A stretch of DNA of 64,000 nt from Candidatus Hadarchaeota archaeon (GTDB lineage: Archaea; Hadarchaeota; Hadarchaeia; Hadarchaeales; JAGGTB01). The position numbers were made by a program, and so were the translations under genes. The notes beneath the pieces were generated by a model, which was given only the letters and a program-made list of their open reading frames with translations, was not told where the DNA came from and did no database searches. The stretch is taken from assembly GCA_964384105.1 (NCBI GenBank), contig CAYLJV010000005.1, positions 24,576 to 88,575 on the forward strand, in the 5' to 3' direction. Shown piece by piece: positions 26,460 to 30,163 of this stretch. Numbering within the stretch: position 1 is the first letter of the stretch; each line of letters starts with the position of its first letter.

Positions 26460-27179
26460 CTATCCTTTAGGTAAGTTCTTAATTTCACAATTTTCGAAGT
26501 TATCTTTTATCTCTTCCCGAATTTCCCTTATTTTTTCGTCGGCAATAGGTTCTAGTTGCTCGTATTTTTCTTTTAAAGTGTTCTGGGGAATAAACTGCTG
26601 TAGGTGGTAATTTTTGGTTCTTCCTTTTATCTGGTCTGCGATGTCTATTATTTCATCTTCACTAACGATATTTGGAACGATAGTGGTCCTGAATTCATAA
26701 TTTGTGTTGGAATGTTCTAACAGTGAGATTGTTTTCTTTACGTTTTCAAATAACTCTTTTTTATCAACACCAATGGCTTTTCTATATTTTTTCCAGTTTA
26801 GTGGTGCTTTTATGTCTAGAAAAATATGGTCGGTAAGGTTTCTCTCAAGAAGCTTTTTCAGCATATCAGGATTTGATCCATTTGTTTCTATTCCAACTTG
26901 AAACCCTAATTCTTTGACTTTTTTGGAAAATTCTGGCAGAGCGGAATCCATAGTTGGTTCTCCTCCCGTTATTACTAGGCCATCTAACCATCTCTTTTTT
27001 GACTCTAGATGGTTTAATATCTCATTTTCTTCTATCACTGGGAGTCTTTCTGGGTTAAGTACCAAATCTTTGTTTTGGCAAAATGGACATCTAAAGTTAC
27101 ACCCACCGACAAATGCAACCGCTACTATCTTCCCCGACCACTCGATAAGAGAGCTTTTTTCAAGGCCTCTGAATTTCAT
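26460..27179 (-). CDS. nrdG: Anaerobic ribonucleotide reductase activase (radical SAM)
   Basis: GCNFRCPFCQN, ITGGEPT, ETNG, EFRTT; directly downstream of nrdD. Confidence 0.9.
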   Translation of the reverse strand: MKFRGLEKSSLIEWSGKIVAVAFVGGCNFRCPFCQNKDLVLNPERLPVIEENEILNHLESKKRWLDGLVITGGEPTMDSALPEFSKKVKELGFQVGIETNGSNPDMLKKLLERNLTDHIFLDIKAPLNWKKYRKAIGVDKKELFENVKKTISLLEHSNTNYEFRTTIVPNIVSEDEIIDIADQIKGRTKNYHLQQFIPQNTLKEKYEQLEPIADEKIREIREEIKDNFENCEIKNLPKG

Positions 27180-27189
27180 GAGCCACCCT

Positions 27190-29415
27190 TTAGGCTAGAG
27201 CTAGAGTTTGGTCGAAAGTTTTTCTTTCGCTATACTCTTCTTGTTTTCCGTCATTCCAATTTTGTACCGGTCTGTAGTATCCTACTACTCGAGAGTAGAC
27301 TTCTGTGCCTTTTCCACAGGTCGGGCATTCAGCGTGTTCTCCTGAGATGTACCCATGATCATGACAGATACTGTAAGTCGGCGTCAGAGTTATATAAGGC
27401 AACTTCGTTTTATGCGTGAGTTTCCTGACTAGAGTTTTAGCTTCTTCTCTACCTAGTCTTTCTCCTAGGAATGTGTGGAATACTGTTCCACCCGTATACT
27501 TGGTTTGAAGATCTTCTTCTATTTCTATCTGTTCAAGAACGTCGTCTGTTTCTCCGACAGGAACTTGAGTCGAATTGGTGTAGTAAGGAGTGTCTTCTCC
27601 TGCGGCAATTATCTCGGGATATTTCTTCTTATCATTTTTTGCCAGCCTGTAGCTTGTACCTTCTGCGGGCGTTGCCTCTAGGTTATATAGGTTTCCGGTT
27701 TTCTCTTGGAAGTCCTGAAGTCTCTTCAACATGTAGTCAAGTACACTATTGGAAAATTCATGACCATCTTTAGTGGCTATGCTTTTTCCAAATAGATTGA
27801 TACAAGCTTCGTTCATACCAACTAGCCCTATCGTAGAAAAGTGATTTTGCAAAGTCCCTAGATATCTCTTAGAGTAGGGGAGCAGGTCATTTTCCATATT
27901 TTTGCTTACTACTTCTCTCTTTATCTCGAGAGAATTTTTAGCTAAGACCATCATGTAGTCTAGTCTTTCAAAGAATTCTTCTTCGTTATTTGAGAGGAAG
28001 CCTATTCTTGGCATGTTTATAGTTACTACCCCTAGGGATCCGGTCATATCACTTGAACCGAAAAGTCCACCGGTTACATTTCTTTCTAGCTCTCTTTTAT
28101 CTAATCGGAGTCTACAGCACATACTCCTAATGTCGTCTGGACTGAGATTTGGACTGTTTACGAAGTTCGAGAAGTAAGGTAGACCGTACTGTGCGGTCAT
28201 TTCGAAAAGTAGATCCGTGTTTTCGCTATTCCAGTCGAAAGAATCGGTGATGTTGTAGGTTGGAATTGGAAAGGTGAAAGGTCTTCCCTGCATGTCTCCC
28301 TCCATTAATACTTCCAGAAAAGCCTTGTTTATCAGTTCCATCTCCTGTTGGTAATCTCCATAGGTTCCGTCTCTCGTTTCGCCCTCTATAACTACAGGAG
28401 AGTTTTTGAGATCTTTTGGGACTGTCCAGTCCATAGTTAAGTTAGTGAAGGGTGTTTGGCCACCCCATCTGCTAGCTATGTTCAGGTTGAAGACGAATTT
28501 TTGCATACCTTGTTTTACTTCATTATAACTCAAGTCATCTGCTCTCACAAATGGTGCCAGAAGAGTATCCATTGAATTGAAAGCTTGGGCCCCTGCCCAT
28601 TCATTCTGTAAGGTTCCTATGAAATTCGCCATCTGTAGCAGAGCTGTATCGTAGTGTTTTGGTGGTTTTGATTCAACTCTTCCTGGAACTCCGTTAAATC
28701 CCTCTCTGAGTAATTTTTGCAATGACCAACCTGCACAGTACCCTGCTATTCCGAATGAAAGATCGTGAATATGAATATCCCCATTCCTGTGAGCGTCAGA
28801 AACTTCCATTGGATAGATCCTATCTAGAGTGTAATTTGAAACGACTGATCCAGCAGCGTGTTTGTATAGGCCCGACATTGAGTATCCTATATTGCTGTTT
28901 TCTTTTACCCTCCAGCTCCTTTGTCCCAGGTAATCATCTACTAGCTCCTCTACTTCTATGAAGGTGTTTTTTATTTCCCTCATATCTTCATGCTGTTTTC
29001 TATACAAAATGTAGGCTTTTGCTGTCTTAGCGTGACCGTTCTCGATTAGAACTTTTTCTACGGCATCTTGAATTTCTTCAACATAAGGAACTTCTTTGGT
29101 AATGTTTTTCTCTAAATACTCTACTACTTTATCGGAAAGTCTCTCTGCCAATCGCCTGTTTCTCCCTCCGACAGCACGAGCAGCGCTCCATATGGCTTCA
29201 GTTATTTTGCTCTGATCAAATTCTACTATTCTTCCGTCTCTCTTCTCGACTTTTTCTATTTCAGAAATCTTTGATTCCTCTTTCTCTTCTTCTCCGCCCG
29301 ATACCAACCATAAACCACAACGAGGACATCTTTTAGGTTGTTCAACCCTTGGGTTCCAGATATGGCCACATTTCGGACATCTCATCTTTTCATCTTTTTC
29401 AGAAATCGAAATCAC
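27190..29415 (-). CDS. nrdD: Class III ribonucleotide reductase with N-terminal Zn ribbon and ATP cone
   Basis: IHIHDL, YCAGW, SMCCRL, EATPAEG, YYTNS, a CxxH/CxxC site, the YSRVVGY glycyl-radical loop, and ATP cone VEKRDG. The exact start codon is uncertain. Confidence 0.95.
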   Translation of the reverse strand: MISISEKDEKMRCPKCGHIWNPRVEQPKRCPRCGLWLVSGGEEEKEESKISEIEKVEKRDGRIVEFDQSKITEAIWSAARAVGGRNRRLAERLSDKVVEYLEKNITKEVPYVEEIQDAVEKVLIENGHAKTAKAYILYRKQHEDMREIKNTFIEVEELVDDYLGQRSWRVKENSNIGYSMSGLYKHAAGSVVSNYTLDRIYPMEVSDAHRNGDIHIHDLSFGIAGYCAGWSLQKLLREGFNGVPGRVESKPPKHYDTALLQMANFIGTLQNEWAGAQAFNSMDTLLAPFVRADDLSYNEVKQGMQKFVFNLNIASRWGGQTPFTNLTMDWTVPKDLKNSPVVIEGETRDGTYGDYQQEMELINKAFLEVLMEGDMQGRPFTFPIPTYNITDSFDWNSENTDLLFEMTAQYGLPYFSNFVNSPNLSPDDIRSMCCRLRLDKRELERNVTGGLFGSSDMTGSLGVVTINMPRIGFLSNNEEEFFERLDYMMVLAKNSLEIKREVVSKNMENDLLPYSKRYLGTLQNHFSTIGLVGMNEACINLFGKSIATKDGHEFSNSVLDYMLKRLQDFQEKTGNLYNLEATPAEGTSYRLAKNDKKKYPEIIAAGEDTPYYTNSTQVPVGETDDVLEQIEIEEDLQTKYTGGTVFHTFLGERLGREEAKTLVRKLTHKTKLPYITLTPTYSICHDHGYISGEHAECPTCGKGTEVYSRVVGYYRPVQNWNDGKQEEYSERKTFDQTLALA

Positions 29416-29421
29416 CCCGTT

Positions 29422-29454
29422 TTACTATTATTACTATTACTACTACAGTATAAA
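29422..29454 (-). promoter_or_regulatory. nrdD promoter: TTTATA box followed by a (GTA/ATA)n tandem tract
   Basis: The minus strand reads TTTATACTGTAGTAGTAATAGTAATAATAGTAA and then a GGGGTGA SD. Confidence 0.5.
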
Positions 29455-29488
29455 TCTATAGGTTACTAAAAATTAGGACTAGAGTTGA

Positions 29489-30163
29489 TTATAGTACCCC
29501 TATAGCTATTTCCCTTATTACGTCGGCACTATTTTCAGATTGATCAAGTACTTCCTCTATGTTGTCTTCTACTTCCCAGAGGAAGTAAGAAGTCCCGGGT
29601 TTTTGGGAGTCGTCGGCCCATTTAACTAGTAGTGGAGTTAGGTTTTTTGCTCTAAAGTAGTCCGCTTTTTCTTCTATTTTCTCTACTTCTTCGGTTTTTT
29701 CTATCGCTTTTTCGGGGTCCTTGATTAATAGTGAAAATGCTTCCTCTAACAATTTCGATGATTCAAAAGCGAGATCAGCCAGATTTTTTAGTCCTTTCTT
29801 AACATCATCGTCAATATTTTTTGGGTTGAGGAAAGTTAATTTTGCACTAGCTGCCCTAGCATTGTCTGCTATATCATCTGTGGTCATTATAAGTCGTATA
29901 ATCATTTCTCGGTTTAAAGGTGGAAAGTTCCCTTTAGAAAGTTCGTCTATGACCTCTGCTTTTTTGCTATCTGCCTTTTTTTCTTCGTCCATAACTTTTT
30001 TGGATTTAGTTTCTAGATCTCTTTCTCCTTTGCTGAATGAGTAGACTAGCTCCTTCATAGCTTCGACAACTTTCACTATTTCATTCATATGTTCTTTAGA
30101 GAGCTTCAATGCTCTCTTTTCTTTTTGTTTTCCGAGCCATAATATTGGTTTTTCTTTAGGCAT
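29489..30163 (-). CDS. DUF47/PhoU-like phosphate transport regulator
   Basis: EKKAD...DDIAD and EEKAD...ENSAD repeats; follows pstB. Confidence 0.85.
   Translation of the reverse strand: MPKEKPILWLGKQKEKRALKLSKEHMNEIVKVVEAMKELVYSFSKGERDLETKSKKVMDEEKKADSKKAEVIDELSKGNFPPLNREMIIRLIMTTDDIADNARAASAKLTFLNPKNIDDDVKKGLKNLADLAFESSKLLEEAFSLLIKDPEKAIEKTEEVEKIEEKADYFRAKNLTPLLVKWADDSQKPGTSYFLWEVEDNIEEVLDQSENSADVIREIAIGVL

Follow-up and report, generated by a model that had tools for sequence, protein, structure and literature searches.

An N-terminal zinc ribbon on an archaeal anaerobic ribonucleotide reductase and a candidate triplet-repeat operator at its promoter

The bacterial repressor NrdR combines a zinc ribbon with an ATP-cone, and bifunctional enzyme-regulators (trigger enzymes) such as BirA and PutA carry an N-terminal DNA-binding domain. 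We know of no ribonucleotide reductase (RNR) that doubles as a regulator of its own pathway genes; to our knowledge, NrdR is absent in most archaea, and the control of their RNR genes is largely unknown. Here, we analyze the class III (anaerobic) reductase NrdD encoded in a 64,000-nt stretch of DNA (the window) from a Candidatus Hadarchaeota archaeon, whose genome (G000) measures 1.6 Mb and is 90% complete. Ahead of its ATP-cone this enzyme carries a 25-residue zinc knuckle, where the trigger enzymes RbkR, BirA and PutA have a helix-turn-helix or ribbon-helix-helix domain instead, and a tract of GTA and ATA triplets lies at its promoter. We describe the anatomy of the protein, the selection acting on the ribbon, and a family-wide, cross-phylum and orientation-independent link between the ribbon and the tract.

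NrdR offers the closest comparison. In both proteins the ribbon lies N-terminal to an ATP-cone, and the putative target is an RNR promoter, at a site overlapping the core promoter and start. An earlier note on this DNA had called the window module NrdR-like; as a statement of homology this does not stand. PF22811, the Pfam family of the NrdR ribbon, has no match in the window NrdD at E≤0.1 (the control P0054 scores 62.3 bits), its best match in the whole genome reaches 12.8 bits against a cut-off of 27.2 and is located elsewhere than nrdD, and no NrdR gene was found in this 90% complete genome. The window ribbon lacks the RRRR motif, as the note had read correctly, and its knuckles are 12–13 residues apart, compared to ~25 in NrdR. 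Ribbon and cone are joined by a linker of ~17 residues, disordered in the model, whereas they pack tightly in NrdR; NrdR is a free repressor of 140–220 residues, whereas the window module is part of a 731-residue enzyme. Reported NrdR boxes are two 16-bp palindromes (PMC9110341, PMC12176259), in contrast to the direct triplet repeat of the window, and the NrdR tetramer is described as built by pairwise zinc-ribbon contacts (PMC9110341).

Two further systems are instructive. RbkR, an archaeal riboflavin kinase joined to a DNA-binding domain, is reported to be an enzyme that regulates genes of its own pathway, as proposed here for NrdD (PMC5397151). Zinc fingers of the CPxCG class (Tarasov et al. 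2008) have two Cys/His patterns 7–40 residues apart, at least one of them CPxCG-like, a description that the NrdD ribbon fits, and the small CPxCG protein Brz is reported, on genetic evidence, to regulate transcription in archaea (PMC2253796). Relatives in this class are 35–70 residues long. The class is a motif rather than a homologous family and has no known DNA site; the subfamily of the NrdD ribbon, by contrast, is defined by a signature (CPKCGY/HxWxPRVxxPKRCPRCGKWL) and comes with a candidate operator.

The N-terminal ribbon of the window NrdD

The nrdD gene occupies 27190..29385 on the minus strand and encodes 731 residues (P0001), numbered here from the ATG at 29385; the enclosing open reading frame (ORF), 27190..29415, begins MISISEKDEKMRCPKCGHIWNPRVEQPKRCPRCGLWLVSGGEEEKEESKISEIEKVEKRDGR in translation. 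Its assignment is based on Pfam and NCBIfam. The NRDD core matches PF13597 at 652.8 bits (cut-off 26.2, E 6.4e-196), and NCBIfam names the protein an equivalog (NF006126, 1081.6 vs 548; TIGR02487, 564.9 vs 326). The PF13597 match (27214..28902, minus strand, residues 162–724) comprises the catalytic core, the C-terminal Zn site and the glycyl-radical domain. The C-terminal tail reads ICHDHGYISGEHAECPTCG...SRVVGYY, with Gly702 at nt 27280–27282; C674, C687, C690 and G702 are invariant or nearly so in an alignment of NrdDs (A4), and we take RVxGY to be the glycyl-radical motif. With this core, motif and Cys-rich Zn site, and with an adjacent NrdG, the protein is, to judge from sequence, a class III RNR.

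The order of domains is zinc ribbon, acidic linker, ATP-cone and NRDD core; the fusion had been read in the earlier note, and Pfam, alignment and codon columns confirm it. The ribbon extends from C3 to L27 (CPKCGHIWNPRVEQPKRCPRCGLWL; 29305..29379, minus strand), as supported by alignment, codon columns and an AlphaFold2 (AF2) model. It contains two CPxCG knuckles (CPKCG and CPRCG), a basic surface (K5, R13, K18, R19, R22) and the aromatic residues W10 and W26. The acidic linker (residues 28–44, VSGGEEEKEESKISEIE; 29254..29304, minus strand) is followed by the ATP-cone (residues 45–133; 28987..29253, minus strand), which matches PF03477 at 81.4 bits against a cut-off of 25.8 and is 65–71% identical to the cones of ribbon-less NrdDs.

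In the best 120 of 5803 matches to residues 1–140, 10 have the ribbon, one (P0054) has a different ribbon, and the other 109 begin at the cone, in keeping with the note's statement that ordinary NrdD carries the cone only. Among 65 Hadarchaeia genomes the ribbon-NrdD is confined to the genus of the window, where it is present in five of seven genomes; in the other two, which are 65% and 85% complete, the query used detected no NrdD. Other Hadarchaeia families have ribbon-less orthologues that are 54–70% identical over the cone. Within the window's genome, the NrdD ribbon is the sole representative of its subfamily.

The ribbon is highly conserved. In the alignment of the 10 ribbon-bearing sequences, the window's own protein included, 20 of the 25 positions from C3 to L27 are invariant, while the sequence of the linker varies. 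Seven Hadarchaeia genes were compared by codon (the window, L091–L094, L104 and L105), with protein identities of 81–83% overall: three of the 25 ribbon codons are identical, 17 vary synonymously only, and five vary in the encoded amino acid. The invariant positions and the synonymous-only variation indicate that the ribbon peptide is translated and under purifying selection.

An AF2 prediction on a 40-sequence alignment gave a predicted local distance difference test score (pLDDT) of 66–80 for the ribbon, <50 for residues 29–40 and 78–89 for the cone, so that in the model the ribbon is a small folded knuckle on a flexible, disordered tether. Its Pfam match (PF23470, residues 2–23) is sub-threshold, at 16.5 bits against a cut-off of 26. 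When the model of the isolated ribbon (AF2, pLDDT 78) was compared with 48,161 chains by VIA-align, the search returned generic rubredoxin-like knuckles, the best being the rubredoxin-like domain of a rubrerythrin (9fj2_A; Z 2.5, root-mean-square deviation 1.4 over 27 residues); NrdR is outside the best 10 rows, a listing that excludes nothing. A complex prediction between the ribbon (residues 1–45) and the rest of NrdD (46–731), run without controls, scored 0.00, which speaks neither for nor against a contact.

The earlier note had considered a translation start downstream of the ribbon. All three in-frame start candidates in the window (GTG 29415, ATT 29406 and ATG 29385) yield a product that includes it. 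GTG 29415 falls within a Shine-Dalgarno-like GGGGTGAT (29411..29418, minus strand, read from the sequence). Three homologues (L093, L094, L105) have the Shine-Dalgarno sequence GGAGGTGA 6–8 nt before an ATG that lies 7–8 codons upstream of the first Cys. L104 has GGAGGTGA as well, with ATA in the place of this ATG; the window has ATT 29406 there. The residues following the replaced start codon (xSExxEEM) are still conserved in the 29385–29415 region of the window. The comparison suggests either that the window nrdD uses a non-canonical start or that initiation has moved to ATG 29385. RNA-library contigs of four runs were compared over 28800–29800: one 212-nt contig (run X11, record 5, 9 differences) spans 29189–29400, and with it the ribbon, the linker and the start of the cone, and none lies over 29412–29513; these contigs may derive from DNA and prove neither transcription nor a start site.

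A triplet-repeat tract at nrdD and across the ribbon family

Upstream of nrdD lies a candidate operator, GTAGTAGTAATAGTAATAATAGTA (29423..29446, minus strand), which consists of eight RTA triplets and contains TAATAGTAA twice in tandem. A TATA-like box, TTTATA (29449..29454, minus strand, read from the sequence), is located 2 nt upstream of it and, by archaeal promoter geometry, would have transcription begin close to where the tract ends on its 3' side. The tract occurs once in the window, with none expected from 100 shuffles, and runs of at least six RTA units are found twice in the 1.6 Mb genome, one of them being the nrdD tract. The 140 nt upstream of nrdD contain 9-nt direct repeats; the only palindrome is 9 nt long, overlapping, at the TATA region. 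The tract was also considered as a frame-related feature and rejected as such: read in frame with nrdD, it gives eight stop codons in the window and L093, but not in L092.

Across the five genomes compared in the genus, conservation of the DNA upstream of nrdD is limited to a TATA-like box and, behind it, TGTAGTAATAGTAATAATA-like triplet repeats; the flanks cannot be aligned. The survey of ribbons and upstream TAC/GTA tracts that the earlier note had suggested proved strongly positive, with the tract upstream of all seven Hadarchaeia ribbon-nrdD genes examined, of a Bathyarchaeia NrdD gene and of stand-alone relatives. Among ribbon-less Hadarchaeia nrdD genes, none of 18 parsed upstream regions has even a 4-unit run (eight loci could not be parsed, and many of the 18 are operon-internal). 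Within the genus, a near-exact pattern of the tract matches at nrdD in 5/5 ribbon genomes and in 2–3 other places; a reversed control pattern has one match. Two second copies were located, both outside the window. One (G000:C4:54050-54070) lies in a ~900-bp stretch without long ORFs, upstream of a 232-residue gene (ORF from 54305). The other (G051:C40:11122-11139) is a perfect copy ~50 nt before an ORF for a 103-residue membrane protein. A nucleotide-metabolism regulon was considered and did not emerge, the second sites being beside unrelated genes.

The ribbon is found well beyond NrdD. A profile of 17 sequences, searched against 1.84 billion representatives (E≤1e-3), retrieved 1977 proteins, which include tandem arrays of 2–11 ribbons, mini proteins of 35–70 residues, and proteins of ~230–270 residues with an N-terminal ribbon. 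By profile similarity, the NrdD ribbon belongs to a large and undescribed family of mini zinc ribbons. The mini proteins P0264, P0280, P0288 and P0290 share KRCPRCGKWL with the NrdD ribbon, and the aligned ribbons of NrdDs and mini proteins (A3) have 15 invariant columns. A subfamily signature, CPKCG[HY]xWxPRVxxPKRCPRCGxWL, is common to the NrdD ribbon and to stand-alone proteins of 35–50 residues. The best Pfam match of the family is PF23470 (Zn_ribbon_PF0610, rubredoxin-like). Tandem-ribbon relatives exceed its cut-off (P0254, 54.8 bits; P0299, 48.2 bits), whereas the window ribbon falls below it, and the PF0610 ribbon differs in being an insert in a winged helix; a relationship is plausible on sequence grounds. 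A Pfam scan covered 60 of 150 listed proteins, five of them minis and the rest longer or with several ribbons, and detected a non-ribbon domain in seven, which in six acts on DNA (PDDEXK_5 twice, HTH_17, GIY-YIG, HNH, and a weak LAGLIDADG).

For the family as a whole, loci were chosen by protein motif only. Species-representative genomes scanned with a profile of the RCPRCGxW subfamily contributed 13 loci and metagenomes 80 more, and the ribbon ORF was parsed by regular expression in 64 of these 93 loci. A strict tract was defined as at least five RTA units, including at least two GTA, within 150 nt upstream, counting only loci for which 80 nt or more of upstream sequence were available. It is present in 13 of 33 loci that carry the subfamily signature, compared to 1 of 27 loci of another subfamily. 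Outside the upstream windows, three tracts were found in 203,524 nt, and all three are at the TATA box of small operons containing a mini-ribbon gene. By a relaxed in-phase score, with identical proteins merged, the tract is found in 17/31 loci of the subfamily, 1/25 of the other subfamily and 21/1860 random windows (Mann-Whitney p 1.2e-5 for the subfamily vs the other).

The layout is constant: TATA box, tract, 0–50 nt and ATG, with the order TATA–tract–start seen in 14 related loci. The tract touches or overlaps the start codon of several mini genes, which are apparently leaderless. The tract is inverted in five loci (L096, L109, L116, L174, L176); its occurrence in either orientation fits duplex DNA, not an RNA element. 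The pattern, judged by sequence, spans at least the Hadarchaeia NrdDs, a Bathyarchaeia NrdD, five distinct mini genes and a family of membrane proteins. Literature searches found no paper on the pairing of ribbon and tract, nor one that describes an NrdD with an N-terminal zinc ribbon.

The membrane proteins (L013–L037, L043), from Hadarchaeia, are ~235–280 residues long and consist of an N-terminal ribbon, a linker, one transmembrane helix and an extracellular domain ending ...W[KG]; this layout resembles that of ToxR-type membrane-bound regulators. Their ribbon reads MKCPRCGYEWxPKVPNPKECPRCKxRLDY. Upstream of their genes, CATCATAATCATAGTAGTAG is found ~12–15 nt before the TATA box in 25 of 26 loci, compared to 24 of 724 random windows.

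The Bathyarchaeia case (L096, from a metagenome-assembled genome) is a 775-residue NrdD (P0391; PF13597, E 3.9e-137) that starts MICRKCGYKWSPRVTSPKRCPRCGKWLIPRP and shares the ribbon subtype of the window NrdD, to which it is only 29% identical. Its gene has CTACTATTATTACTACTAC, the tract on the other strand (GTAGTAGTAATAATAGTA inverted), ~18 nt before the ATG and behind AAGTTTATC. Pfam detects no ATP-cone in this protein, which suggests that the pairing of ribbon and operator needs no cone. When residues 1–40 of P0391 were searched against long proteins, one of three candidates matched, with a word filter too strict for counting fusions. Directly upstream of the ribbon-NrdD gene, L096:493-2667 encodes a 724-residue NrdD-like paralogue (NRDD, 188 bits) with an ArsR-like N-terminus, for which weak matches to HTH_20, HTH_5 and DUF7347 were obtained; it ends right after the Cys site. 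The paralogue has a putative DNA-binding domain on an NrdD scaffold without the RVxGY tail, whereas the window NrdD keeps its glycyl-radical motif. A glutaredoxin/NrdH-like gene of 88 residues (CPRC; L096:2694-2960) follows the paralogue.

Possible autoregulation and competing explanations

The simplest explanation for these comparative data would be recognition of the tract, in its duplex form, by the ribbon, since the link is family-specific, orientation-independent and cross-phylum, the flanks are free to vary, and the genome holds one ribbon of the subfamily and essentially one conserved tract. The ribbon would then be a minimal sequence-specific domain for binding double-stranded DNA, with (GTA/ATA)n as its cognate site, and a mini-ribbon gene together with its TATA–tract promoter would have been fused in frame to nrdD. 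As NrdD is a dimer, it would present two ribbons, whose flexible tethers could reach the tandem repeats. The tract immediately follows the TATA box and covers the point where transcription is expected to begin, so that NrdD bound there would block RNA polymerase and repress nrdD–nrdG, a negative feedback on its own synthesis. The same archaeal promoter geometry suggests that a tract placed between TATA and start, the arrangement of the mini genes and of nrdD, should repress, and that a site upstream of TATA, the arrangement of the membrane-protein genes, could activate. We infer a tract-binding role for the ribbon, and repression by binding, from these patterns, and put the probability that the ribbon binds the tract and NrdD autoregulates nrdDG at about 0.55. 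The proposal of the earlier note that the enzyme binds its own promoter is thus retained as the best reading of the tract survey.

The note had further proposed that binding depends on ATP and dATP. Loading of the adjacent cone with either nucleotide might change the oligomeric state and hence binding, as in NrdR; this is plausible, since the cone is adjacent and dATP is reported to shift the dimer–tetramer balance of P. copri NrdD through its ATP-cone (PMC11226230), and we consider it a tentative analogy that probably does not hold. Comparably speculative is a picture of NrdD as a nucleotide-sensing trigger enzyme, an archaeal counterpart of NrdR that forms part of the reductase, in which dATP would drive formation of a tetramer, place four ribbons on (GTA/ATA)n and turn nrdDG off when dNTPs are plentiful. 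The ribbon would then represent a class of ~25-residue DNA-binding domains widespread in archaea, which would comprise autoregulated mini-proteins, ToxR-like membrane-anchored regulators and enzyme fusions, all using the same kind of triplet-repeat site.

Several observations weigh against autoregulation through the tract. The strict tract is present in only 13 of the 33 subfamily loci; the remainder include operon-internal loci and loci whose tract is degenerate. The surveyed loci share ancestry, so the p-values overstate the case, and ribbon and tract may travel together as one promoter–gene cassette, in which case co-occurrence partly reflects shared ancestry. The two extra tract sites in the genus adjoin unrelated, non-homologous genes that have no obvious connection with RNR. 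Neither the acidic linker nor the cone has a demonstrated role in DNA binding, and the Bathyarchaeia fusion is without a detectable cone. Finally, in size and knuckles the ribbon matches the Fe(Cys)4 domain of rubrerythrin (Z 2.5), and relatives give weak RUBY_RBDX matches, so that, on the model, the knuckle could bind iron and be a redox site or a purely structural metal site.

Other accounts were considered. The tract may be a promoter element or the site of another factor, and the ribbon a structural or oligomerisation knuckle that modulates cone allostery, or a dock for NrdG or a redoxin. Pairs of zinc ribbons are reported to build the NrdR tetramer (PMC9110341), the NrdD ribbon adjoins the cone, and a four-Cys ORF between nrdG and nrdD in ribbon-less Hadarchaeia (see below) hints at a small metal-binding partner in the operon. 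However, the ribbon is nearly identical, letter for letter, to stand-alone proteins of 35–50 residues from other phyla, which argues that its surface is not adapted to NrdD; the linker is predicted to be disordered; and the account would leave unexplained why the tract accompanies the ribbon in mini genes, in membrane proteins and in a cone-less NrdD. We consider this account rather unlikely. Binding of the ribbon to the nrdD mRNA leader, or to other single-stranded nucleic acid, for translational autoregulation would suit its basic, aromatic surface and the leader with a Shine-Dalgarno sequence that follows the tract in Hadarchaeia nrdD genes. It is hard to reconcile with a tract that occurs in both orientations, at the ATG of apparently leaderless mini genes and upstream of TATA in the membrane-protein genes, since in these placements the tract would be absent from the mRNA or present as its complement, and we judge it improbable.

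A rubredoxin-like Fe(Cys)4 module that feeds electrons to the 4Fe-4S cluster of the activase or to the reductase is, in our view, less probable still. Knuckle spacing and size are those of the rubrerythrin domain that gave the best structural match (9fj2_A), and relatives have sub-threshold to moderate RUBY_RBDX matches; yet a Z of 2.5 is within noise for a 33-residue model, the fusion partners in the family are nucleases, HTH domains and membrane proteins rather than redox enzymes, and the tract would be left unexplained. The ribbon could also be a passenger with no function on the enzyme, nrdD having captured a strong promoter along with an exon-like mini gene. The TATA–tract–ribbon unit does look like a mobile cassette, and AAGTTTATA-type boxes are found in the Bathyarchaeia nrdD and in mini genes; the strong purifying selection after fusion (20/25 residues invariant, 17 synonymous-only codon columns) and the independent fusion to NrdD in two phyla make this very improbable. 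Least credible is that the module is a diverged NrdR, with homologous ribbon and cone, fused to NrdD. The domain order is the same and true fusions of an NrdR ribbon to NrdD exist, but homology is refuted by PF22811, RRRR and knuckle spacing; moreover, the cone is that of an ordinary NrdD and the close relatives of the ribbon are cone-less minis.

Related fusions, neighboring genes and implications

The fusions just mentioned are exemplified by P0054, in which an authentic NrdR ribbon (PF22811, 62.3 bits, RRRR) precedes a cone and NrdD; such fusions make up about a hundred protein clusters. Its first 50 residues, used as a query against long proteins, gave 125 proteins, and 104 of the best 120 of these (P0054 and P0122–P0240) contain PF22811, PF03477 and PF13597 together; they occur as single-cone proteins of ~700–760 residues and two-cone proteins of ~820–870 residues. 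A few of the 120 have class I or II RNR domains instead of NrdD. Named sources include Woesearchaeota, Nanoarchaeota and Desulfofervidus, with DPANN archaea among them. Like the window protein, these are NrdDs with an N-terminal ribbon followed by a cone, and they invite the same idea of a self-regulating RNR; they bear the authentic PF22811 ribbon, however, which the window NrdD does not. No mention of them was found in the parts of the NrdR and RNR literature that were searched for fusions.

Downstream of nrdD by 10 nt lies nrdG (26460..27179, minus strand), which encodes the radical-SAM activase (Radical_SAM 74 bits, Fer4_12 35 bits), and the two genes probably form one operon. The genome encodes five ATP-cones: in NrdD, in a class II RNR, in a 175-residue protein, in a 292-residue protein located in the window, and in a protein with a cone plus a further domain. 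None of these five is NrdR in this 90% complete assembly. The class II-like ORF (ATP-cone, NPCGE motif; G000:C1:~297900-299140, L002:544-1779) ends after 411 residues and may reflect an intein, a split gene or a frameshift. The C-terminal part of the 175-residue protein (L003:1495-2022, on G000:C1), judged by eye, resembles a small heat-shock (alpha-crystallin) domain.

The nrd loci of ribbon-less Hadarchaeia differ in their small genes. An ORF of 80–84 residues with four cysteines (C-x16-C-x2-C-x10-C) and no Pfam match lies between nrdG and nrdD at L052:1214-1468, L053:1869-2111, L054:1215-1463 and L056:1891-2139. In L052 and L054 it begins with 8 residues that match, exactly or almost so, the N-terminus of the NrdD encoded next; L056 shares six, and L053 differs. 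An HxlR-like winged-helix gene (~230–240 residues) is beside ribbon-less nrdGD in six loci (L051, L053, L054, L056, L061, L064). A search with this gene gave no match in four of the five ribbon-bearing genomes (G000, G048, G051, G052); in G049, G050 and G053 it located a copy at a distance from nrd genes (L076–L078). This distribution is suggestive of regulator replacement; it concerns seven related, incomplete genomes and is not relied on here.

Other members of the ribbon family appear in varied settings. Hadarchaeia proteins of 126–130 residues (L038–L041, L044, L045) have an N-terminal ribbon, CxNCGYEWRPRGKPKRCPSC, followed by a weak match to Hjc/PD-(D/E)xK (IDV...FIDVK). Mini-ribbon genes of 39–46 residues lie directly upstream of N6/N4 DNA methyltransferase genes (L095:2992-4018, L097:2986-3814, L099:~1235-2268; the L099 methylase was called by eye from a DPPY motif only), and by position they occupy the place of controller (C) proteins in restriction-modification systems. 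Two metagenome contigs share a conserved layout of 2–5 short genes, one of them winged-helix-like, with a mini-ribbon gene last (L108:236-2775, L117:1-1354); these operons begin with a TATA box and tract directly after a gene for an Mrp/NBP35-like ATPase. A scan of viral contigs with the ribbon alignment (A3) gave 10 weak loci, at 41–61% identity over most of the ribbon, two of them with 69% over 13 residues.

If the window NrdD does bind its tract, it would become the first RNR for which control of its own gene is shown, and offer a compact model of how an enzyme and a regulator can be coupled. The tract would also provide a concrete candidate DNA site for a large family of tiny zinc-ribbon proteins that annotation has mostly missed, and its link to the ribbon suggests a role for the N-terminal ribbon on the conserved membrane proteins of Hadarchaeia.

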